NCBI GenBank assembly: GCA_035937605.1
Contig: DASZHU010000146.1
Span: 1-34,985 of the forward strand
DNA from: Acidimicrobiales bacterium
GTDB taxonomy: Bacteria > Actinomycetota > Acidimicrobiia > Acidimicrobiales > JACDCH01
Reading direction: 5' to 3'
DNA: 34,985 bases
In this document: positions 2,308-20,884 of the stretch, piece by piece
Layout: each line of letters begins with the position of its first letter
How positions within the stretch are numbered: the first letter of the stretch is position 1
The notes under the pieces: model-generated
Told to the model about the DNA's origin: nothing
Seen by the model: only the letters and a program-made list of their open reading frames with translations
Database searches by the model: none
Program-made: the position numbers and the translations under genes

Positions 2308-3786
2308 TCAGCTGACGTCCATGAGCATGCCTTCGCACGTGCGGATGAGCACACGCGAGGCATCGGCCGCTTCTCGGCTCGACAGCGGGTTCTCGGCGCG
2401 GCGCTGCCACCGGCCGATCGCGTTCTGGAGCGCGACTCGGATGTCGCCCGGCGTCGCGCCCGGATCGAGCCCGAGTCTCGTCGTCGGCGACGAACCCTCG
2501 GCTCCGAGCATCCGCTCCATCTCCTCGCACTCGGCGGGCTTCACACCCTTCACCACTCCCGCCCGGAGCGCGTTGAGGAGCCGCACCTCTGCAAACTCGT
2601 GCGCCCCGGCGGTGACACGCTCGAGCTCTGACGCAAGCTCGTCGGCGCCGGCAACGGGGTGATCGCGAACGACAGCCTCGAGCGCGAGCAGCGCGGACCG
2701 CGACTTCAGCACGTCGCGACGCGACGCGAACTGGGACAGGAGCACCTGCTTCAACTCCACAAGCCCACTGCGCAGCACGAGCTCGTTCGCCAGCTGGCTC
2801 GACGTCGTCACCGCACCCTGACGGATCAACGCCGCGGCGAGGCGCACGCCGAACAGCCCGAACCGATCGAGAAGGTGCTCGCGCTCCATCGAGGTCAGTG
2901 CGATCTGCGTCGGCGCTTGCACGAACCGATCGGTCGAGAGGAAGAGCCGATCGGCCTCGTCCTGTGGCGCGGTCGCGATCGTGTACAGCGCCTTGAACTC
3001 AGCCTCGCGCAGTGTCGAACCCGACTGCGCCAGGAGTCCGGCCACCGGCACCACGGTCTGGCAGAGGCGACGGACCTTGGCGTCGTGCTTGTAGCGCGTG
3101 GCGATGCGCGACGCGGACGCCATCGAGTCGAGTCGCCCCACGCCGATCTCGTCCGCCCGCGAGAGCACGGCGATCGCGTTCACCGGTGTTGCCTGCGCGA
3201 CCTCCTGGTCGTGGAACGCCTCCAGAAAGCCGATGTCGGTGGTGTGCAGGTGCCGCATCAGGTACAGCACCGCGTCGGCGGGAGTCACCTGGTCCTCGCC
3301 CGGGGTGAGGAACGCCTGGGCACGCGCCGAAACGTCGATCGACAGTGATGCGATGCCGGGTGTGTCGATCAGCGTGATCGCCCGCAACGACGACGACGGC
3401 CACTCAACCTCCAGCCGGTCGACCGTCTCGACCGGCGTGCCTTGCAGGTCGATGTCGATCGCGCCGGCATCACGCGAGAACGGCACCTGCCGGGGCTCGC
3501 CTTCCTTCGGGTGCATCATCACCCGGTACGTGATGCCGTCGCGGTACCACGTGACGATCTTCGAGCACTCGCCGGCGTCGGTCGGCGCCAGCTCTTCGCC
3601 GACAAGGGCGTTGAGCAGCGTCGACTTCCCCGCCTTCACCTTGCCCGCGATCGCGACACGGAGCGGCTCGTCGAGGCGCGCACGCTCGGCTTCGAGTTGC
3701 GCGCCCTGTGGCGTGTCGCGGTACACGCTGGTGGAGCGCGTCAGCAGGCCCCGCACCTCGTCGAGCAGCGTCGGGCGACGAGCCAC
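2308..3786 (-). CDS. Bacterial dynamin-like GTPase, IniC-like (492 aa)
   Basis: P-loop AIAGKVKAGKSTLLNALVG and G3 motif LIDTPGIAS, followed by a long helical stalk. No hydrophobic segment. Its GTG start shares one nucleotide with the upstream gene's TAG (TAGTG at 3786). Confidence 0.85.
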   Translation of the reverse strand: MARRPTLLDEVRGLLTRSTSVYRDTPQGAQLEAERARLDEPLRVAIAGKVKAGKSTLLNALVGEELAPTDAGECSKIVTWYRDGITYRVMMHPKEGEPRQVPFSRDAGAIDIDLQGTPVETVDRLEVEWPSSSLRAITLIDTPGIASLSIDVSARAQAFLTPGEDQVTPADAVLYLMRHLHTTDIGFLEAFHDQEVAQATPVNAIAVLSRADEIGVGRLDSMASASRIATRYKHDAKVRRLCQTVVPVAGLLAQSGSTLREAEFKALYTIATAPQDEADRLFLSTDRFVQAPTQIALTSMEREHLLDRFGLFGVRLAAALIRQGAVTTSSQLANELVLRSGLVELKQVLLSQFASRRDVLKSRSALLALEAVVRDHPVAGADELASELERVTAGAHEFAEVRLLNALRAGVVKGVKPAECEEMERMLGAEGSSPTTRLGLDPGATPGDIRVALQNAIGRWQRRAENPLSSREAADASRVLIRTCEGMLMDVS

Positions 3787-5639
3787 TACGACGCCTCGCT
3801 CGCGAGATCAGGTGCGAGCGACAACACCTCGTCGCGCAAACCTCGGATCCGCGCGATCTCCGCTTCGACGTCGGGCAGGCGCTTCGCCCGAGTCTTGGCG
3901 TCGGTGTCGACCGCGACCTGCGCCTTGTGCAGGGCTTCGGTGGTCGACCGATAGAGCTCCTCGGCCCGCGTCGTGAACTGATCTCGCAGCTGCCGCTGGA
4001 TACGACGCACTGTGTCACGTGCGTCCTTGCCGACCTGGAAGGCCAGCTCGTCGGTGTACTTGCGGTGCGCGTTCTTGGCTTGCGCCCGTCGTTGCGCGAG
4101 CGCGCGGTTCTTCTCGTCGCGGTAGGCCTTCCCACCGAAGATGATGCCGGCGACGACGCCGACGGGGTTGATCAACGCGAGACCGACCATCTGGCCAAAC
4201 ATGCCGAACATGAGCGCGCCGCCGTACGACGATCGCAGCGTGCTCATGCCGGTGCTCAAACCGTCGCCCTCCTGCAGCTCCACGTCGGCCGACGCCTCGA
4301 CCGCCTTCAACAGCTCGGAGGGGTTGGGGACGTCGAGCTGCACCGCGATCTCATTGCCGTCGATCGAGAACAGCTCGGACACCCGCGCCGCGATCTCGCC
4401 GGCCCGTCGCTGCATCATCGTGTAGTTGGCGACGACGTGGTCCGCCGCTTGTCGGTAGAGCCACGGCTCGAACTCCTCCCACGAGTCCGCCGGGTCGCTC
4501 TGGTCGAGTGCATCATCCGCGTCCTTGGTGAGCTGCCGGAGCCGCGAGCGAAGGTCGTGGTCGACGTCGGTCAGGAGGTCCATGAACCCGTCGTTCAGCG
4601 TGACCTGCCAACGCGCCGCCGTGCTGCGGAGCCGATCACCCTGGTCGGTGGCGATCTCGAGCTGGTGGACCAATTCCGATGCACGGTTCGGGTCGGCGAG
4701 CGCGCTGCGTTCCGACGCGAACTGGCTCTCGAGCTGCGTGACGACCGACAGCATCTCGGCCGCGGCGGTGCGCACCACGAGGCTCTCGCGCTTGCCCACG
4801 ATCTCGACGCCGAGGTACTGCTCGAGCGGGCCGAACCCCGACTCGGCATCGAGTGCGGCGTCGCTCGTCTCTTGCGACAGACGCCGGAGCGCGGACGACA
4901 GTTCGAGCACGGGAACCTCGACGTTTGCCGCGGCGAGATGACCCTGGTCGAGATCGACGATCTTGCGCCACGAGGGATAGAAGTCGATCTTCGTGATCAC
5001 GCAGCCGACGTTCGGGCACAACGACCGGGCGGTCTGCAGGAAGTCGAGCTCAGGTCGCGTGTACTCCTGCGACGCGTCGCTGACGAACAGCACGGCGTCG
5101 GCCATCGGCAGCGCGCCGATGGTGATCGCCGAGTGCGTCGATCCGAGACCTCCGACTCCCGGCGTGTCGACGAGGACGAGCCCCGGCTCGAGGAGGGGTG
5201 AGGGCACGCCGACATCGACGGACTCGATCCGCCTCCGGTTGTCCGGATTGGCCGCTTCGGTCACGTACTGCGCGACCTCGTCGAACGGCACCTGCTCGAT
5301 CGTCGACACCGAGCCCTCGGGTGCGTCGTCCGGCGGGCTGACGGTCGCAGTCGCGTTCGCCGCGAGCGCGTGATGCAGCTTGGTCGGCACGGCGGTAGCG
5401 ACGTCGTCGTCGACCGGGCACACGTCGAACCCCAGCAGGGCGTTGATCAGCGAGCTTTTGCCCTGTTTGAACTCGCCGACCACGAGCACGTGGAAGAGCG
5501 GATCGACGAGCCGAGCGCGGGTCTGGGCGAGGCGCTCCGACAGATCGGCGCGCTGGTAGGCGTCTGCCGCAGACGCGCAGATCTCGAGGATCGAGGTCGC
5601 CGCCTCGCGTGCCGGTGCCCCACGCTCCACCTGACTCAT
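3786..5639 (-). CDS. Bacterial dynamin-like GTPase, IniA-like (617 aa) with a membrane-insertion paddle
   Basis: P-loop VVGEFKQGKSSLINALLG and G3 motif LVDTPGVGG. A hydrophobic hairpin GGALMFGMFGQMVGLALINPVGVVAGIIFGG sits near the C-terminal third. Size and gene order match the IniA-then-IniC arrangement. Confidence 0.85.
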   Translation of the reverse strand: MSQVERGAPAREAATSILEICASAADAYQRADLSERLAQTRARLVDPLFHVLVVGEFKQGKSSLINALLGFDVCPVDDDVATAVPTKLHHALAANATATVSPPDDAPEGSVSTIEQVPFDEVAQYVTEAANPDNRRRIESVDVGVPSPLLEPGLVLVDTPGVGGLGSTHSAITIGALPMADAVLFVSDASQEYTRPELDFLQTARSLCPNVGCVITKIDFYPSWRKIVDLDQGHLAAANVEVPVLELSSALRRLSQETSDAALDAESGFGPLEQYLGVEIVGKRESLVVRTAAAEMLSVVTQLESQFASERSALADPNRASELVHQLEIATDQGDRLRSTAARWQVTLNDGFMDLLTDVDHDLRSRLRQLTKDADDALDQSDPADSWEEFEPWLYRQAADHVVANYTMMQRRAGEIAARVSELFSIDGNEIAVQLDVPNPSELLKAVEASADVELQEGDGLSTGMSTLRSSYGGALMFGMFGQMVGLALINPVGVVAGIIFGGKAYRDEKNRALAQRRAQAKNAHRKYTDELAFQVGKDARDTVRRIQRQLRDQFTTRAEELYRSTTEALHKAQVAVDTDAKTRAKRLPDVEAEIARIRGLRDEVLSLAPDLASEAS

Positions 5640-5662
5640 GTGAACCGCATCCTAAGGTTGCC

Positions 5663-7552
5663 GTGGTGGCGTGGGTGTTGGGTGTCGATCTGGGCACGAC
5701 CTTCACGGCCGCGGCCGTGTGGCGAGACGGGCGCGCCGAAATCATCACGCTGGGCACGCACACCGCGGCCATCCCGTCGGTCGTCTTCTACCGCGACGAC
5801 GGCAGCACGATCTCCGGTGACGCTGCGGAGCATCGTTCGGTCACCGAACCGGAGCGGGTCGCGCGCGAGTTCAAGCGTCGCGTCGGCGACACCACACCGC
5901 TCCTCGTCGGTGGCGCGCCTCGCTCGCCGGAGGCGCTCATGGCCGTGCTCTTGCGCGACGTCGTGCGCGACTCGGTCAGCCAGGAGGGGTCGCGCCCCGA
6001 CCGCATCGCCATCACCCATCCGGCGAGCTGGGGTCCGTACAAGCTCGACGTACTGCGCCAAGCCATCCGGCTCGCGGAGCTCGGCACCGAGACCGAGCTC
6101 GTTCCCGAGCCGGTCGCGGCGGCGGTGCACTACGCGACGCTGCAACGGGTGGAGATGCATGACTTCGTGGCCGTGTACGACCTTGGTGGCGGCACGTTCG
6201 ACGCCGCCGTCGTGCGGCGCACCGCGGACGGCTTCGAGCTCTACGGCCAACCGGAAGGAATCGAACGTTTGGGGGGCATCGATGTCGATGCGGCCGTGTT
6301 CGGTCACGTCCAGACGTCGCTCGGTCTCAAGCTCGACACCCTCGACCGTGACGATCCTGCGGTGGTGTCGGCGTTCGCGCGGCTGCGGGCCGACTGCGTC
6401 ACCGCGAAGGAGACGCTGTCGGCCGACACCGACGCGGTCATTCCGGTGATCCTTCCCGGTCTGTCGACCGAGGTGCGCATCACACGCGGCGAGCTCGAGT
6501 CGATGATCCGGCCGGCGATCACCGACACGCTCTCCGCGCTGCGCAGGGCGATCGCGTCGGGCGGACTCGTGCCAGAGCACGTGGAGCGGGTCCTGCTCGT
6601 CGGTGGGTCGTCGCGCATCCCACTGGTGGCCGAGATGGTCACGGCCGACCTCGGCCGGCCCATCGCGCTCGACACCCATCCAAAGCACGCGGTTGCACTC
6701 GGCGCGGCCACGATCGCCTCGCCCAAACCCGTTCCCGTCACGCCGGCGTCGCCGCCCCCGCCTCCGATCGTCCCGGTGGCCGCTCCCGTCGCGCCGGCGG
6801 GCCCACCACCGATGCCGCCGGCTGCTCCGGTTCCGGTCGTCGCGCCGGCACCTGGTCCACCCGGTCCACCCGGGCCACCCCGTCCCGCGACGCGGAAACG
6901 ATCTCCGGCGCTCGTCCCCGCGATCGTGGTCGTGGCGCTCGCCCTGCTCGTCGGCCTGTTCGCGATCACGAGATCGAGCGGCAACAACAAGAACGCATCC
7001 AGCTCGACCGCGACTTCCGGCACGTCGACGACCGACAGCTCCTCGAGCGACAGTTCGTCGACGAGCAGCTCCTCTACGGACAGCTCGTCGAGCTCGGACT
7101 TCCCGCTGTCCTCCGCCTCGTTCGGTGACACCGATGTGGAGGCGACGGCGTCGAATCTCATCCGCGTCTTCTTCACGTTCGACGACTCCAACGTCGACAC
7201 CCTCGCAGCTCGCACCCGCCCGCTGTCGACGGGCAAGTTCCTCGAACAGCTGAACGGCTTCAGCTCGGACTTCGTCAGCTCGGCGCAGAGCCAGCACGTG
7301 CACTCGAGCGGCAATGTCACCGCAGTGAAGTCGTTGGGTTTCGACGGCAGTCATGGCGAGGCTCTGGTGACAGCCGACGTGACGGTGACGAGCGACAACA
7401 GTGGCTCGCAGCTGAATACGTTCAAGCTGATCATGGCGCTCGACTCGGTCGCCGGTCACCTGCTCGTGTCCGACCTGGCCGAGTGCCCCGGATCGGCCGG
7501 CTTCACCGACTCGAGCTCCACGGCGCTGTCGAGCTTCTCGGGCTCTTGTTGA
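5663..7552 (+). CDS. Membrane-anchored Hsp70-family ATPase: nucleotide-binding domain only, then Pro-rich linker, TM helix, Ser-rich tract and Mam/SnoaL-like ectodomain
   Basis: Actin-fold motifs VDLGTTFT, YDLGGGTFD and LVGGSSRIP are present, but there is no DnaK substrate-binding domain. The Pro-rich tract is at about 6719-6890, the TM (ALVPAIVVVALALLVGLFAI) at about 6909-6970 and the Ser-rich tract at about 6990-7110. The C-terminal domain ends ...LVTADVTVTSDNSGSQLNTFKLIMALDSVAGHLLVSDL. The start is uncertain: GTG 5663 has AAGG 6 nt upstream, and ATG 5609 would overlap the divergent dynamin gene. Confidence 0.85.
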   Translation: MVAWVLGVDLGTTFTAAAVWRDGRAEIITLGTHTAAIPSVVFYRDDGSTISGDAAEHRSVTEPERVAREFKRRVGDTTPLLVGGAPRSPEALMAVLLRDVVRDSVSQEGSRPDRIAITHPASWGPYKLDVLRQAIRLAELGTETELVPEPVAAAVHYATLQRVEMHDFVAVYDLGGGTFDAAVVRRTADGFELYGQPEGIERLGGIDVDAAVFGHVQTSLGLKLDTLDRDDPAVVSAFARLRADCVTAKETLSADTDAVIPVILPGLSTEVRITRGELESMIRPAITDTLSALRRAIASGGLVPEHVERVLLVGGSSRIPLVAEMVTADLGRPIALDTHPKHAVALGAATIASPKPVPVTPASPPPPPIVPVAAPVAPAGPPPMPPAAPVPVVAPAPGPPGPPGPPRPATRKRSPALVPAIVVVALALLVGLFAITRSSGNNKNASSSTATSGTSTTDSSSSDSSSTSSSSTDSSSSSDFPLSSASFGDTDVEATASNLIRVFFTFDDSNVDTLAARTRPLSTGKFLEQLNGFSSDFVSSAQSQHVHSSGNVTAVKSLGFDGSHGEALVTADVTVTSDNSGSQLNTFKLIMALDSVAGHLLVSDLAECPGSAGFTDSSSTALSSFSGSC

Positions 7553-12348: not shown

Positions 12349-13419
12349 TTGAGGGCCATCGCGCTCTCTGTCGATCCCTGGGCCGGCGTCATCGGCCAGC
12401 AGCACGCCGTTGCCGCGCTGCAAGCGGCCGCGGCGCGGCCGATCCACGCCTACCTGCTCGTCGGGCCGCGCGGGAGCGGAAAGCGTCAGCTCGCTCGCTC
12501 GTTCGCGGCGTCGCTGCTGGCCGCCACTGCGACGTCGGATCCCGACCGGACGGCGAGGCTGGCACTCGCCGGCCGCCATCCCGACCTGCACGAGTTCGAG
12601 CGGGCGGGCCCGTACATCACGGTCGAGCAGGCCGACTCGATCATCGCCGAATCGAGTCGAACCGGCGTCGAGAGCGACCGCAAGGTGCTCGTGCTGGTCG
12701 ACTTCCACCTCGTGCAGCCGGCCGTGGAAGGCAAGCTGCTCAAGAGCATCGAAGAGCCACCTGGCGACACCGTCTTCGTGGTGCTGGCGGAGTCGGTGCC
12801 GGCCCTGCTCGAGCCGATCGCCTCACGCTGCGTGCGCATCGACGTCGATCCGCTCCCCGAGTCGGTCGTCGCCGACGCGCTCGTCGCTTCCGGCGTCGAC
12901 GACGGGATCGCCGCCGAGGTCGCGTCCGCCGCCGGTGGCGATCTCGATCGCGCTCGATTGCTGGCCACGGATCCACGGTTCTCGTTGCGGCGCACGTTGT
13001 GGCGTTCGATCCCGGAGCAGCTGGACGACACCGGTGCGGCAGTGGTGCGGTTGGTGGGCGAGGTGCGGGCCACGATCGACGACGCGGCGGAACCGGTGCG
13101 GGCGCGTCATGCGCAGGAGCTCGTCGAGCTCGAGGAGCGAATCGAGCGGTACGGCGAACGGGGATCGGGAAAGACGCAACTCGTCGACCGCCAACGGCGC
13201 GAGCTGCGCCGGCATCGCACGGACGAGATCAAGTTCGGATTGGCCACGATGGCGGGTCGTTACCGCGACGAACTGCACGACAACTTGCGGCTCGCGCTCG
13301 CCGGACTCGACGCGATCGCGGACACACACGAGTCGATGGAACGGAACCCGAACGAGACGCTGTTGCTGCACGCGCTCCTGCTGCGGCTGCCTTCCGTGGC
13401 GGTGCTCGCTCGGTCATGA
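12349..13419 (+). CDS. holB: DNA polymerase III delta-prime subunit
   Basis: GQQHAVAAL....HAYLLVGPRGSGKRQLARSFAASLL (AAA+ clamp-loader Walker A) and SRC motif IASRCVRI. It follows tmk. TTG start at 12349. Confidence 0.85.
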   Translation: MRAIALSVDPWAGVIGQQHAVAALQAAAARPIHAYLLVGPRGSGKRQLARSFAASLLAATATSDPDRTARLALAGRHPDLHEFERAGPYITVEQADSIIAESSRTGVESDRKVLVLVDFHLVQPAVEGKLLKSIEEPPGDTVFVVLAESVPALLEPIASRCVRIDVDPLPESVVADALVASGVDDGIAAEVASAAGGDLDRARLLATDPRFSLRRTLWRSIPEQLDDTGAAVVRLVGEVRATIDDAAEPVRARHAQELVELEERIERYGERGSGKTQLVDRQRRELRRHRTDEIKFGLATMAGRYRDELHDNLRLALAGLDAIADTHESMERNPNETLLLHALLLRLPSVAVLARS

Positions 13420-13791
13420 CGCGCCCCCGTTCACGTCGACGATCAGCCATGGCGCGTCGCTTCGTGGGTCGTCGAACACGAGGCGGCACCGACCTTCCGA
13501 CCCATCAGCCGGCGCTGTCGCCAACAGCTCGACGACGGTGTCGCCTCGTCGCTCCAGCTGCACGCCGGCGTACGTGTCGCCCTCTCCTCGGCTGACGACG
13601 ATCGAGACCCCCGACGTGGGTTGTGAGGTCGCCGGGGACGATCGGATCTCGATGGCCGCGCGGCTGGCGTCGGCCTCGATCGTGATCAGCGGCCCGGCGT
13701 GACCGTCGCCGACGACCAGGCGCAGAGTCGTGATCTCGTCCATCAGTGCCCGCCGGAGTACGTCGAGCTGATCGGTCATCCAGGCCGGCAC
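13414..13791 (-). CDS. Hypothetical protein (125 aa), no recognisable domain
   Basis: Non-shadow-like composition with mostly G/C third positions. Its stop and the holB stop share the palindrome TCATGA (13414-13419). The start could be GTG 13791 or ATG 13779. Confidence 0.5.
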   Translation of the reverse strand: MPAWMTDQLDVLRRALMDEITTLRLVVGDGHAGPLITIEADASRAAIEIRSSPATSQPTSGVSIVVSRGEGDTYAGVQLERRGDTVVELLATAPADGSEGRCRLVFDDPRSDAPWLIVDVNGGAS

Positions 13792-14109
13792 GGGCAGGAG
13801 GTTCCGCAGCCGGCGTCGACGCCTTCGTGACTTGCATCGGTCACATCAATCGCCTCGCTCGGGATCCGGTCGGCGCTCGAAGCGCCGCCGGGATTGTGTG
13901 AGGACCGAGACCGGCCGAGCGCTCTCAAGGGGGATGCTGGCCGCGATCGCAGCGCGGTCGGGGTTCGACGAGGTGATGAGAAGTGTACGAAGGGAGTGCG
14001 ACAGTGAAGCGGGGATCCGCGTGACGGCTTCAGTTGACACGTCGAGCGGTCATCGCGAGCACCTTGTCCCAGTTGCGTCGCGTCCGTCAGGACGACGATC
14101 GGGCAGGAT

Positions 14110-14141
14110 GCTACTCATCAGTCTGTAGACGTATCAGTAGC
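14110..14141. promoter_or_regulatory. Candidate operator: inverted GCTACTCATCAGT / ACGTATCAGTAGC half-sites upstream of the XRE gene
   Basis: Arms at 14110-14122 and 14129-14141 match 10/13 as an inverted repeat. They lie 22-53 nt upstream of ATG 14163. The same GCTACTNAT core recurs at 14436-14451. Confidence 0.45.
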
Positions 14142-14162
14142 GACTTCGCTTCGCTCTAGGCG

Positions 14163-14387
14163 ATGAACGATGAACTCCTGCGACGAGTCGGCGCGAACCT
14201 TCGTCGGATGCGTCTGCAACAGGGTCTGTCCCAAGAGGAGTTCGCGGAGATGCTCGACGTGCATCGCACGTACGTCGGTGGACTCGAGCGGGGCGAACGC
14301 AACCTGACGCTTCGCTCGCTGGAGCGCCTCGCCGCGCGGCTCGATCTGGATCCGCTGGTTCTCCTGCGGCGTCCGCGCAACTCGTAG
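14163..14387 (+). CDS. XRE-family helix-turn-helix transcriptional regulator (74 aa)
   Basis: Classic Cro/C1 HTH layout: LRRMRLQQGLSQEEFAEMLDVHRTYVGGLERGERNLTLRSLERLAARL. Confidence 0.9.
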   Translation: MNDELLRRVGANLRRMRLQQGLSQEEFAEMLDVHRTYVGGLERGERNLTLRSLERLAARLDLDPLVLLRRPRNS

Positions 14388-14435
14388 CGGCACGACGACC
14401 CTCAGCGAGGTTCGGTCCGAGAGCTTTCCCTTCAC

Positions 14436-14451
14436 GCTACTGATAAGTAGC
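14436..14451. promoter_or_regulatory. Perfect-arm palindrome GCTACT-GATA-AGTAGC, second candidate XRE operator
   Basis: Read directly from the sequence. It sits 49 nt after the XRE stop and about 190 nt upstream of the surface-protein ATG at 14645. Confidence 0.4.
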
Positions 14452-14644
14452 ATGAAGTCGCGCAGGTGGCGGTGCGGGGATGCGGGGAAGGCGAGGAAGC
14501 AGCATGACGACAGGAGGTAGTACGGCGGAGCCGCTCGACGCGGCCGCCCTCGACTCCCGGGCGCGTACGCATCCGCGAGTCGCATTCCTCCTCGGTGCGT
14601 CGTTGCGCGCTTCTCGGAGTTCTGACCATGGAGGGAGCAGGAAG

Positions 14645-15148
14645 ATGCGAACACGTAGGTGGGTGGCGTTGATCGCATGCAGCGTGCTCGCCGTTGCGGC
14701 GCTGGCGCTCGTGGCGCCCGGGGCGCGGGCCCAGACATATGGTGGGCGTGGCACGCTCGCACCGAGCAGCTCGAACGTTGCCACCGGTGGGAGCCTCACC
14801 CTCAGCGGCGACGGGTTCGCGCCGAACTCCACGATCACGATCGAGATCCACACCGACCCGATCTCGCTGGGCACGGCGGTGGCGGACTCCACGGGTCACT
14901 TCGAGAAGCAGGTTACGCTGCCCATCGCCGTTGCCGCCGGACAGCACACCGTCACTGCGGTCGGCACGGCCCCCTGACGGCTCGAGCCTCGTGCTCTCGA
15001 CGACGATCATGGTCGGCGGCCAGGGACACTCAGCCGAACAGGGACGGACAGCACGCGTCCTGTCGTCGTCGCGCTCGTGCTCATCGCTGTCGGCGCGACG
15101 CTCGTCTCTGGTGTTCGGCGCCGCCGGCGTCGCGCCGTGGGCGTCTGA
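14645..15148 (+). pseudogene. Secreted Ig-like surface protein whose C-terminal sorting signal is cut off by an in-frame TGA (14975-14977)
   Basis: GGAGGGAGCAGGAAG RBS precedes ATG 14645. Signal peptide MRTRRWVALIACSVLAVAALALVAPGARA-Q is followed by a beta-rich domain ending ...HTVTAVGTAP, then TGA. The same frame continues RLEPRALDDDHGRRPGTLSRTGTDSTRPVVVALVLIAVGATLVSGVRRRRRRAVGV, then TGA (15146-15148). That is LxxTG + TM + Arg tail, a sortase-type sorting signal. Confidence 0.6.
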
Positions 15149-15172
15149 CGATCGAGCCGGCGTCACAGCCGC

Positions 15173-15790
15173 ATGACAGACGGACGTGGTCGTTGGCAAC
15201 ACCTCGCCCGGGCGCCCGACAGATGGATCCCCTCGCCGCGGGTCATCGGGTGGTGCGCGCTCGGCTTGGTGGTCACCGGCACGGTGGCTCTGCCCTTGCA
15301 GGCCACGACATCGCCCGCGCCGTCGCTGCGACTCGCTGGCCTCGTCACCAGGGTCGATGGCGCGCACGTACAGGTACTGATGCGAGCCACTGCCGCGCGC
15401 GCCACGTTCGAAGGCACCATGTCGTGGGCTCTCGCGCCGCACGGTTCGGCAGATTGCTGGGCACTGGATTCGCGATCGGGTTCGTCGTCGCGCTCGATCA
15501 GACCCTACGAACGCCGCATCCACGGAGTCTCGTCACCGCGGTGGTCTGTCTCGTCGGGACCTTGGCCACGTCCCATCTGATCGCTGCGTTCGCGGCCGCG
15601 TCTGCAGTCGTGCTCGTCGTGCTGCATCTCGTCCTACGCGTCGAGACGATGTATCGCCGCCGCCGCCGGCACAGCTTCGTGTGGCTCGGCCTCGCCGTCC
15701 TGCCGTTCGCACCGCTGTACCTGACGCTGGCTCGCACGGTCCTCGTCAGCGTGCACGGTCGTGACGCGTCGCGTCGTTCACCCACCGACT
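15173..15790 (+). pseudogene. Probable frameshifted or degraded polytopic membrane-protein gene
   Basis: A TM-like stretch (VIGWCALGLVVTGTVALPL) lies in the frame of ORF 15173..15580. Further helices (LLGTGFAIGFVVAL, LVTAVVCLVGTLATSHLIAAFAAASAVVLVVLHLVL, FVWLGLAVLPFAPLYLTLA) appear only in the frame of ORF 14659..15987, from about 15445. No single frame is intact. A short real gene starting at GTG 15424 cannot be excluded. Confidence 0.3.
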
Positions 15791-15892
15791 GGTGGAATGA
15801 GGTGCAGTTCATCCTCCGCTACGACCCTGGCCTGTGGGCTCCACGCCCTGGGCGGGCACGCACTTGGCGTGGTCGGGTCGGGCACACGTCTG

Positions 15893-16051
15893 GCCACCGG
15901 CCGGCTCTCGTGGGGCCACACCTCACTGGTGCATCGCTTCGTCGACGCCGTGCTCGACGGCACGCCGCCCCCGGTATCGATCGATGACGCGCTCGAGGTG
16001 GTCGCGTTGACCGACGGCATACTCGCCGCGCTGACCCATGTAGGACGGTGA
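15893..16051 (+). pseudogene. 3' remnant resembling the C-terminus of a Gfo/Idh/MocA-type oxidoreductase
   Basis: The tail of ORF 15761..16051 reads HRFVDAVLDGTPPPVSIDDALEVVALTDGILAAL, which resembles the conserved C-terminal block FVDAI..G..PPVS.EDGL.ALE...AI of that family. No Rossmann N-terminal domain is present upstream. Confidence 0.35.
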
Positions 16052-16087
16052 GGCCCGGGAGGACCGGCTGCTAGCTTTCGTCCTTCC

Positions 16088-16163
16088 GCCCGGGTAGCTC
16101 AGACGGCAGAGCAGCTCACTCGTAATGAGCAGGTCAGGAGTTCGATTCTCCTCTCGGGCTCCA
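16088..16163 (+). tRNA. tRNA-Thr, anticodon CGT, CCA encoded
   Basis: Hand-folded cloverleaf. Acceptor GCCCGGG/CTCGGGC (one G-U pair), D arm GCTC/GAGC, anticodon arm GCTCA-CTCGTAA-TGAGC (anticodon CGT at 16121-16123), variable loop AGGTC, T arm AGGAG-TTCGATT-CTCCT, discriminator T, CCA at 16161-16163. Confidence 0.93.
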
Positions 16164-19033: not shown

Positions 19034-19141
19034 CGGTGCGATGGTCGGGGCCGTAGCCTCGCGACTGGTGGGACCGCGGCACGCGCCTGACGGGTGAAGT
19101 GTTGCGGTAGCTCGGGCTCGGGCGTGGGGAAGGAGCGTGCG

Positions 19142-20884
19142 ATGCCGCTGAAGTGGGTGGAGTACGAGGGCGGCGGCGGCAACGAGGGACACCACGACGT
19201 CGACCTGACGTGGCTAAAGCGGCTGAGCGATGCAGATCTGCCGACGCTGGAGAGCGACGCGATCGACGAGCTCACGAAGGCGAGGAAGGCCTACAACGAG
19301 ACCACGAGTCCGAACCATGGGCCACTCGCGTCCTGGGTTTCCACCTGGGAGCGTGCTGTCGCGGAGATTCGCCAGGAGATCACCCGTCGCAAAACGCCAG
19401 TTGACGATCTCTTCGCTGGTGTCGCCGGCAATGACAACAAGCTCGTCTTCGACGCCCCGGCGAACACCGATCCGACGCTTGACACCGGCCATTACGACGA
19501 TGGCCACACGTTCGGTTGGAAGTCACCGGGCGGACCTGCGCCCGCGGCGACGGGCGTTACGCCGGAGCCGCTCGTAACCAAGTCCCATGTCGACGAGCTG
19601 CTCAACCGTGTGCAGCCGCGAGCGGAACCGACGTCACCGTCGAGTCTGGCGTCAACGGCGGACGTCTGGGCGCACGGTGACTACTGGGGAGATGGGTGGT
19701 GGAGTTACCAGGGCATCTGGTACTGGTCCGATGGCTGGACGGTGCTGGGGATAACCAACAACTACGTCTGGTACCTGGGCTACAACGGCACCTGGGTCAA
19801 GTACATGGACAGCGCGACGTACTGGGCCAAGGTGTACAGCGGCTGGGGCACGAACGTCACGACGTTCGTCGACACGCAGGTTGAGCAGCCGACGTTGCCG
19901 CCCAACGAAGTGTTCACGCCGCAACCGACGAGCCCCACGTTGGAGATCGCCGACGCCGGGACGAGCACGAAGACCAAGGTCGCGATCGGCGGCGGCATCC
20001 TGCTCGCCTGCTGTGCGGTCGCGGCGTTCGTGCTCATCGACCGGGGCGGGTCATCAACCAAGAACACGAGTGCCCCGGTGGTCGCAGGCGTGACGCCGGG
20101 CGCACAACTGTCCAACAGCAGCGCATCGAGTGGCGCGGTTGTGGCCGCAACGCCGCCCCCGAACACGGTGCTGGCCAGTTGCTTTCAGTTGGCGGTGAGT
20201 CCCGGTGCGACCATGTTCATCCCCACGTTCATCACCGCCCCGATGGTGCCGGGCGCGTATCAGGTCACGTTGAGGACGGGCAACGGCGACGTCACCGGGT
20301 CAGGCACCGTTGCTTCGGGTGCGACCTGGGCGGAGGTGCAGTTGGGGTTCACTCGCTTCACTGACATCACCGCCATCAACATCAGCGGACCGAACGGCCC
20401 GATCGCGCCGGGCACGTTCGCCAGTCAACTGCCGTTCCCGTTGGACGCCGCCCATGACCATCCAACCGATTGTGACGGCAGCAAGCTCACCATCCCTGTT
20501 CAACCTCCTTCGGGCGGCGGGGCCGACATCAAGACGCAGATGGCGACGTTTCTGGACACACTCGCCAACAACACCCACAGCCCGGCTGGCGTCGACGGCC
20601 TGATGGCCACGCTGAACCGTGCCGTCACCGATGTGTTCGGCGTCGATCAATGCCGATCGTTCCTGGCCACGACCACCGATCCGAGCGCGGCCTTCACGGT
20701 GCTCGACCTCAGCGCGCCCGGCCCGTTCGACTACACCATCGGTGCCCACACAACGACCGTGCCCGACACGTTCACCGTCACCACGCGGCACACTCACAAC
20801 GGTCAGACCACCCAAGACGCGGTTCATGTCGCCCGCGGCTCCGACGGATCGCTGTCCTGGTTCACCCGCTGCACCAGCGGCTGA
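19142..20884 (+). CDS. Orphan single-pass membrane protein (about 580 aa) with a Trp/Tyr/Gly-rich aromatic repeat block
   Basis: GGGGAAGGAG RBS precedes ATG 19142. No signal peptide. An aromatic block lies at 19661-19849, a TM helix (VAIGGGILLACCAVAAFVLI) at about 19979-20040, and a Thr/Ser/Gly-rich beta-type domain follows C-terminally. I recognise no known family. Confidence 0.7.
   Translation: MPLKWVEYEGGGGNEGHHDVDLTWLKRLSDADLPTLESDAIDELTKARKAYNETTSPNHGPLASWVSTWERAVAEIRQEITRRKTPVDDLFAGVAGNDNKLVFDAPANTDPTLDTGHYDDGHTFGWKSPGGPAPAATGVTPEPLVTKSHVDELLNRVQPRAEPTSPSSLASTADVWAHGDYWGDGWWSYQGIWYWSDGWTVLGITNNYVWYLGYNGTWVKYMDSATYWAKVYSGWGTNVTTFVDTQVEQPTLPPNEVFTPQPTSPTLEIADAGTSTKTKVAIGGGILLACCAVAAFVLIDRGGSSTKNTSAPVVAGVTPGAQLSNSSASSGAVVAATPPPNTVLASCFQLAVSPGATMFIPTFITAPMVPGAYQVTLRTGNGDVTGSGTVASGATWAEVQLGFTRFTDITAINISGPNGPIAPGTFASQLPFPLDAAHDHPTDCDGSKLTIPVQPPSGGGADIKTQMATFLDTLANNTHSPAGVDGLMATLNRAVTDVFGVDQCRSFLATTTDPSAAFTVLDLSAPGPFDYTIGAHTTTVPDTFTVTTRHTHNGQTTQDAVHVARGSDGSLSWFTRCTSG

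Follow-up and report, generated by a model that had tools for sequence, protein, structure and literature searches.

A predicted membrane-anchored Hsp70-type ATPase with a Mam-like ectodomain, encoded beside IniA- and IniC-like dynamins in an Acidimicrobiales bacterium

The stretch of DNA analyzed here (the window; 34,985 nucleotides [nt], contig DASZHU010000146.1 of an Acidimicrobiales bacterium; all coordinates are window positions) contains a plus-strand gene, 5666..7552, for a 628-residue protein that begins with an Hsp70-type nucleotide-binding domain (NBD). The gene is a member of a conserved three-gene set with a pair of dynamin-like GTPase genes related to iniA and iniC. It was defined from the open reading frame (ORF) list (host ORF 5609..7552, plus strand; stop codon at 7550-7552) and from an identical database protein, P0002, and it shows the codon-position GC bias typical of genes in the window (GC content at third codon positions [GC3], 0.85). 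The GTG at 5666 is the likely start, matching the 628-residue P0002. The original prediction had the gene begin at 5663, a neighboring GTG that is equally possible. Five parts were confirmed in the protein: an Hsp70 NBD, a Pro-rich linker, one transmembrane (TM) helix, a Ser/Thr tract, and an NTF2-like ectodomain.

The NBD (residues 1 to 351; 5666..6718, plus strand) has the Hsp70/actin fold with its motifs intact. Pfam HSP70 matched it with an E value of 3.3e-48 (164.8 bits), covering only the NBD part of the profile (to approximately position 372 of 599), and the first 350 residues aligned end to end with the NBD of Geobacillus DnaK (PDB 2v7y; E = 6e-38). Retained in this alignment were DLGTT, the Lys of FKRRVG, the Glu of PEP, YDLGGGTFD, and LVGGSSRIP; these supply the phosphate-1 (DxGTT), phosphate-2 (DLGGGTFD), and adenosine (GGxxRxP) motifs and the catalytic Lys and Glu that characterize the Hsp70 superfamily. 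The three Hsp70/actin motifs predicted for the N-terminal region are thus borne out, with the catalytic residues present. As in the DnaK and HscA chaperones, the NBD is complete, with the catalytic Asp/Lys/Glu/Asp/Thr motifs and approximately 30% identity to DnaK NBDs. Unlike those chaperones, the protein is membrane anchored, and after the NBD there is no VLLLD interdomain linker and neither the beta-sandwich nor the lid of the substrate-binding domain (SBD), with a Pro-rich linker in their place; the point at which the Pfam match stops agrees with the predicted loss of sandwich and lid. Scores against the NCBIfam DnaK and HscA models were about 150 to 160 bits, compared with cutoffs of 620 to 820, which places the protein outside the canonical DnaK/HscA group. 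Lacking the SBD and the interdomain linker, the protein is unlikely to run a classical chaperone cycle, and we infer that it is not a classical protein-folding chaperone.

The predicted cytoplasmic linker (residues 352 to 414; 6719..6907, plus strand) has 29 Pro among its 63 residues (46%), is the nearly pure Pro/Ala/Val tract that had been predicted, and ends in RPATRKR. It contains a 9-nt unit repeated 4.1 times at 6849-6885 (Tandem Repeats Finder [TRF]), within which the tandem Pro-coding units described at 6854-6880 read GPP GPP GPP. The TM helix, ALVPAIVVVALALLVGLFAI (residues 415 to 434; 6908..6967, plus strand), is the sole segment whose mean Kyte-Doolittle value over 19 residues exceeds 1.6 (maximum, 3.0). 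It is followed by a 44-residue Ser/Thr/Asp-rich spacer, predicted to be extracytoplasmic (23 Ser and 8 Thr; 6968..7099, plus strand), that contains a 15-nt unit repeated 4.2 times at 7029-7091 (TRF); the GACAG(C/T)TC(C/G)TCGA units reported at 7034, 7049, and 7079 are visible directly in the sequence. Hydropathy and composition therefore agree with the single TM helix and subsequent Ser/Thr/Asp tract of the original prediction. The proposal that the tracts could vary in length between strains was not borne out in that form: no strain-level variation was seen, the tracts of the sole near-identical second contig (P0130) being identical. Between orthologues of the clade, linker lengths do differ widely (22 to 57 residues), as do Ser-tract lengths.

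The last part is a Mam/VirB8-type NTF2-like ectodomain of approximately 130 residues (7100..7483, plus strand). An AlphaFold2 model built from an alignment of 14 orthologues had a mean predicted local distance difference test (pLDDT) score of 84.9, with values above 90 at residues 11 to 130, and consisted of four helices followed by four long antiparallel strands. In the C-terminal region, pLDDT fell below 50 at residues 132 to 149. This low-confidence tail (7484..7549, plus strand) is bounded by two cysteines (codons 7484-7486 and 7547-7549; C129 and C150 in ectodomain numbering) that are invariant in the 14 orthologues, the second being the last residue of the protein. When the last 150 residues were searched alone, no Pfam or NCBIfam model matched significantly (NCBIfam Rv0361_Cterm scored 18.6 bits, below its cutoff of 37), and a single-sequence search of the PDB gave only a marginal match, to OmamC (E = 0.87). 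The 14-orthologue profile, in turn, matched Mycobacterium tuberculosis OmamC (PDB 9r33) over 107 residues with an E value of 9.1e-10. An hhalign comparison with a small Mam/OmamC alignment gave 98.8% probability (E = 1.2e-16), a result that is partly circular because that alignment contains three proteins found with the query; the OmamC profile match is independent of it. Foldseek searches of the PDB with the model returned IcmL, DotI, VirB8, TraM, and CagV, together with the intermembrane-space domains of ARC6/PARC6 and SnoaL-type cyclases (all at E values of 1e-5 to 1e-3 and template modeling scores of 0.5 to 0.7). Given the homology to OmamC and the NTF2-like model, the Mam/SnoaL-like ectodomain proposed originally is upheld at the levels of sequence and fold. 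Homologues of this domain are scarce: a word-indexed search returned one, and an exhaustive phmmer search of 1.8 billion representatives returned nine. Three of the weaker matches (P0127-P0129) were bitopic or lipoprotein-like actinobacterial proteins, one of which matches Rv0361_Cterm below the cutoff.

Simple rules supported a bitopic cytoplasmic-membrane protein with the N terminus in and the C terminus out. The single TM helix has 4 Lys/Arg residues in its N-side flank (RPATRKR) and 2 in its C-side flank, no signal peptide precedes the ATP-dependent N-terminal domain, and the spacer beyond the helix is rich in Ser and Thr. In addition, the homologous Mam/VirB8 domains are extracytoplasmic and have disulfides in their oligomers, and the invariant Cys pair, with one member as the last residue, fits an oxidizing extracytoplasmic location. 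These indicators agree with one another and with the predicted placement of the ATPase inside and the C-terminal domain outside. By the same simple rules, the helix, the charge difference, and the two tail cysteines would be compatible with the single-TM, outer-domain plan of Mam and Omam proteins.

Mam proteins have been described as VirB8-like, with ectodomains that form oligomers with intermolecular disulfides (bioRxiv 10.1101/2025.03.26.645568), and OmamA has been described as NTF2-like (PMC13492129); the crystal form of OmamC is a trimer. The window protein resembles members of this group (OmamC/Rv1363c, OmamA, and Mam1A-D) in having a single TM helix followed by a VirB8-like NTF2 domain that is predicted to lie outside and in having cysteines possibly able to form extracytoplasmic disulfides. 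It differs in that the cytoplasmic N terminus of Mam proteins is short, whereas 414 residues, including the 351-residue Hsp70 ATPase, precede its TM helix. Furthermore, Mam genes trail mce operons or their products act on Mce, whereas the window gene adjoins iniA- and iniC-like genes. The plastid-division proteins ARC6/PARC6 and the type IV secretion scaffolds VirB8/DotI/IcmL are also bitopic, and the membrane separates their NTF2-like domain from a part that is cytoplasmic or stromal; here, the likeness is at the fold level only (9 to 18% identity). In ARC6, the opposite side of the membrane bears a J-like domain rather than an Hsp70 NBD. The ARC6/PARC6 structures matched by the ectodomain model are PDB 5had/5u9o, and the parallel would be an Hsp70-system module, a TM helix, and an NTF2-like domain, as a resemblance of fold only.

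A full-length search returned 7,452 proteins at an E value of ≤1e-10; most of them are annotated as "Hsp70 family protein" or "actin-like ATPase." The layout of an NBD, a Pro-rich linker of 20 to 200 residues, one TM helix, and a further 150 to 250 residues was found in 100 of the top 110 homologues, and a TM helix follows the NBD in 61 of 70 complete ORFs from GTDB. Family-specific invariant NBD motifs are PASWG, PEGIERLGGxD, and HPKHAVALGAA, and the window protein conforms to the family layout. Judging from these proteins, NBD, Pro linker, TM helix, and ectodomain make up the general family architecture, and only the type of ectodomain is special to the clade. NBD identity is approximately 83% within the Acidimicrobiia clade and approximately 60% to Micromonosporaceae, and ectodomain identity within the clade is only 23 to 34%. 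Members outside the clade carry other ectodomains instead, usually a four-cysteine domain (70 of the top matches; 21 of 37 in the dynamin-linked subgroup defined below) and occasionally a BON, fn3, or repeat domain. "Chimeric," the term used in the original prediction, is therefore apt for a constant chassis of ATPase, tether, and TM helix on which the outer domain is exchanged.

One example of the four-cysteine domain is the last ~137 residues of P0033 (locus L002, 10001-11983), and its pattern is CT..I..N.RWVC...GG.H.H.YG....W.V.D....VCARIA..H.L....TGNC.P. The domain was predicted to be beta-rich (pLDDT, 95.9); it had no Pfam match and no significant PDB match (best E value, 6e-3; template modeling score below 0.4), and it may represent a domain not yet described. 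No Mam-like ectodomain was detected in the 120 family loci from GTDB species. The 14-sequence ectodomain alignment was too divergent to seed a genome scan; a dedicated scan with a closer ectodomain alignment detected no relative among GTDB species representatives, and a whole-protein genome scan for the ectodomain clade returned only an unrelated Opitutus match. Because the scans of GTDB representatives gave none, the NTF2-bearing clade is known only from metagenome contigs. The PEGIERLGGxD motif also occurs in metagenome-assembled genomes (MAGs) labeled Acidobacteria, Gemmatimonadaceae, Thermomicrobiales, and Chloroflexia (loci L089, L099, L110, L121, L140, and L142), in L089 next to both dynamins. 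These occurrences could mean that the family reaches past Actinomycetota or that the bins are contaminated. In an Ilumatobacteraceae MAG, a second, more distant Hsp70-like ORF (107 bits; L007, 11198-13138, plus strand) lies just downstream of a dynamin-linked member. Literature searches on Hsp70 together with dynamin or IniA found no study of this membrane-anchored family.

The neighboring dynamin genes lie on the minus strand. The first (3786..5639) encodes a 617-residue IniA-like GTPase that matches Pfam Dynamin_N and aligns full length to Mycobacterium smegmatis IniA (PDB 6j72; E = 7.2e-106; residues 19 to 609 against 9 to 596). The second (2308..3786) encodes a 492-residue IniC-like GTPase, also with a Dynamin_N match, that co-occurs with the IniA-like gene in related loci. 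The start of the IniC-like gene and the stop of the IniA-like gene share 1 nt, in a two-gene operon that the original prediction had missed. The Hsp70-NBD gene is divergent from this operon, with 26 nt between the start codons. A scan of these 26 nt found neither promoters, including sigma-70-like promoters, nor terminators; the missing sigma-70-like promoter suggests that transcripts are leaderless or that promoters lie inside the opposite coding region. The corresponding gap is 48 nt in the syntenic locus L001, against the 26 nt of the window (5639-5666). Neither IniB nor IniR was identified among the window genes.

The association of the three genes extends well beyond this contig. The triad recurs in L001 and, with a GerE-family regulator between the genes, in Actinoplanes regularis. 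In 8 of 10 centered family loci, orthologues of both dynamins are located no farther than 8 kb from the Hsp70-NBD gene. These loci come from two classes of Actinomycetota and span Acidimicrobiia, Actinoplanes, Actinomycetospora, Paractinoplanes, and Actinomycetota MAGs; the complete set was found in Acidimicrobiia, Micromonosporaceae, and Pseudonocardiaceae. Among the 37 GTDB-species loci with the NBDs closest to that of the window (≥440 bits), 28 have a dynamin in the block and 22 have both. These linkage counts are lower bounds because the family-specific DNA pattern search returned 8-kb blocks that are not centered on the gene. A genome scan with the NBD alignment was swamped by ordinary dnaK loci, and 7 to 8 of the 80 loci it returned were family members. 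Across the same series of loci, identities fall in parallel for the NBD (84, 61, 58, 57, 54, and 48%), the IniC-like protein (87, 57, 54, 54, 48, and 46%), and the IniA-like protein (80, 43, 45, 43, 34, and 38%), with the NBD best conserved overall. The three genes have apparently been inherited vertically.

Related pairings occur in mycobacteria. Eighty Mycolicibacterium loci centered on iniA were collected, 61 of them with enough upstream sequence to be counted for upstream genes. All 61 have, upstream of iniA and no more than 4.5 kb from it, an Hsp70-NBD-like ORF on the opposite strand, with a TM helix after the NBD in 59; in 29 of 66 loci, another such ORF directly follows iniC. Two to three paralogous ORFs of approximately 600 residues are present in Mycolicibacterium ini loci (e.g., L211, 5936-7726 on the minus strand and 13340-15220 on the plus strand; similarly in L205-L284). 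Each has a degenerate Hsp70/actin-like NBD (GLSVGATN, CDFGGSGTS, and VGGGARIPLV), a TM helix that is preceded by LPW[YF][RK] in the ORFs read, and a long Pro/Thr-rich external tail. Since the ATPase motifs look partly lost, these versions may be pseudo-enzymes. In 8 mycobacterial loci, a canonical dnaK is located no more than 10 kb from iniA. The window locus resembles the mycobacterial IniB-IniA-IniC/IniR envelope-stress locus in its IniA and IniC homologues in operon order, with the 1-nt overlap, and in the nearby membrane Hsp70-NBD-like genes; it differs in that the mycobacterial proteins have degenerate motifs and end in the Pro/Thr-rich tail with no globular ectodomain. Boot et al. 2017 (PMC5760070) recorded a "dnaK-like gene" at the ini locus of M. 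smegmatis. Jilly et al. 2018 (PMC5827413) noted DnaK-domain neighbors of cyanobacterial dynamins; their "chaperone group" of bacterial dynamin-like proteins is alike in that a DnaK-domain protein is encoded beside the dynamin and unlike in belonging to another phylum, a likeness that is limited to this published note on gene neighborhood.

Elsewhere in the window, further genes downstream include topA, a major facilitator superfamily (MFS) transporter gene, tmk, and holB, and an Rfam scan detected tRNA only. A region of approximately 2.2 kb (13800-16090) just upstream of tRNA-Thr (16088-16163) has no strong GC3 bias and no Rfam match, and its long ORFs (14659-15987, plus strand; 14432-15523, minus strand) have no Pfam match; it may consist of decayed genes, foreign DNA, or a noncoding stretch. 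An ORF of 596 residues at 19094-20884 (plus strand), with a good coding signal (GC3, 0.83), has no Pfam match at an E value of ≤0.001.

Together, these observations suggest that the protein may be a membrane-anchored, ATP-driven partner of IniA and IniC that links the envelope side to dynamin-mediated membrane remodeling. We judge the chances of this reading to be about even, and most of the uncertainty concerns the role of the ATPase. IniA mediates membrane fission (PMC6715688) and IniA and IniC respond to envelope-targeting drugs (PMC6715688, PMC10240201); vesicle release needs both proteins (PMC10240201). The window protein would be the membrane-resident third component of this IniA/IniC module, acting in fission, repair, or vesiculation. 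Its NTF2-like ectodomain would probably oligomerize or dock on an envelope component, by analogy with the Mam, VirB8, DotI, and ARC6 domains; the ~60-residue Pro-rich tether would give the ATPase access to dynamin assemblies at the cytoplasmic face; and the ATPase would serve there as a nucleotide-driven switch that, through binding and hydrolysis of ATP, recruits, licenses, or disassembles dynamin oligomers.

Several points weigh against this partner role. The functional evidence for it consists of gene linkage, and how an Hsp70 NBD lacking an SBD would act on a dynamin is left unexplained. More distant paralogue groups of the NBD family are dynamin linked in only 9 of 58 cases, so that the NBD can evidently work in other contexts. 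The topology call comes from simple rules. Finally, in the 2v7y alignment the window NBD has Glu and Pro at the positions of E. coli DnaK R167 and N170, which we take to be J-domain contacts, suggesting that the usual co-chaperone cycle does not apply.

The fast-changing ectodomain raises a rather improbable alternative, namely, that the locus is a conflict system that senses envelope damage or phage, with the ectodomain as sensor or decoy and the ATPase licensing membrane sealing by the dynamins. The disparity between NBD and ectodomain identities within the clade and the exchange of ectodomain types (NTF2-like, four-Cys, BON, fn3, and repeat) would fit such a role. The dynamins matched PADLOC LeoBC (E = 6e-21) and LeoA (E = 1e-16), Bacillus subtilis DynA contributes to phage defense (PMC12998192), and conflict systems that combine a GTPase with HSP70 have been described (Kaur et al. 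2020, PMC7159879). However, the PADLOC matches reflect general dynamin homology, and the GTPases of the DO-GTPase/GAP1 and HSP70 systems are TRAFAC-clade DO-GTPases, a family different from the dynamin-family IniA homologues of the window. The locus, moreover, sits in a housekeeping syntenic neighborhood (topA, tmk, and holB) that is conserved in L001 and is no defense island, and the three genes look vertically inherited. A PADLOC PD-T4-6 match to the Hsp70 protein was rejected, as it falls in a low-complexity region. The homology of the ectodomain to OmamC could point instead to an Mce accessory, a Mam/Omam-family protein that stabilizes an Mce lipid importer with its own ATPase attached; Mam/Omam proteins have a cytoplasmic N terminus, one TM helix, and an NTF2-like domain and stabilize Mce1 and Mce4 (PMC13492129). 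This explanation is distinctly improbable. The scanned ORFs of the 35-kb window gave no match to an Mce/MlaD or YrbE domain, the conserved neighbors are dynamins and not mce genes, and the Rv0361_Cterm score is below cutoff. Furthermore, most dynamin-linked orthologues bear the unrelated four-Cys ectodomain, which indicates that the Mam-like domain is a clade-specific swap and not the core of the family.

Two further alternatives take the NBD as their starting point. It could polymerize like MreB or FtsA, making the protein a membrane-anchored cytoskeletal or morphogenetic factor in growth or division. Weak matches to Pfam MreB_Mbl (E = 2.9e-6) and FtsA were obtained, and relatives carry the JGI name "actin-like ATPase involved in cell morphogenesis." Actinomycetota are not known to have FtsA, and Streptomyces dynamins stabilize Z rings. 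A cytoskeletal role is nevertheless very improbable: the MreB score is 26.8 bits, below the MreB cutoff, compared with the much higher Hsp70 score; the matches amount to fold resemblance; and no division genes lie near among the scanned ORFs. Least probable of all is a membrane-tethered helper of canonical DnaK, an Hsp110-like NBD-NBD exchange factor or recruiter unrelated to the dynamins. The Hsp70-type NBD with intact motifs and the dnaK genes near some mycobacterial iniA genes would suit it, but no dnaK, grpE, or dnaJ was found among the scanned window ORFs, the conserved neighbors are again dynamins, and such a helper, which likewise draws on resemblance of fold, leaves the ectodomain unexplained.

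Returning to the proposed partnership with IniA and IniC, a bolder version can be framed, which we consider possible though unlikely: IniA, IniC, and the Hsp70 ATPase would be one ancient, phylum-wide machine in which the swappable outer domain senses envelope state or an attacker (phage or antibiotic), the signal passes through the membrane, and ATP turnover by the Hsp70 domain sets where and when the dynamins cut or seal. If true, this would give bacteria a counterpart of Hsc70-assisted membrane-coat dynamics, and the isoniazid-induced Ini response its missing sensor or adaptor.

By its sequence, the window protein is a clade-specific, Mam-domain member of an uncharacterized, phylum-wide family of membrane Hsp70 ATPases that is built from known domains. 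Its architecture indicates that an Hsp70 ATPase domain can be used without an SBD as a membrane-tethered module and that the Mam/VirB8-type domain occurs outside the Mce context. The degenerate copies in fast-growing mycobacteria have been mentioned in the literature only as a "dnaK-like gene." IniA and IniC are dynamins that isoniazid and ethambutol induce in mycobacteria. For their targeting and regulation at the membrane and their coupling to the envelope, the conserved ATPase, anchored in the membrane and encoded next to them throughout the phylum, is an obvious candidate partner, and one that is testable in M. smegmatis.

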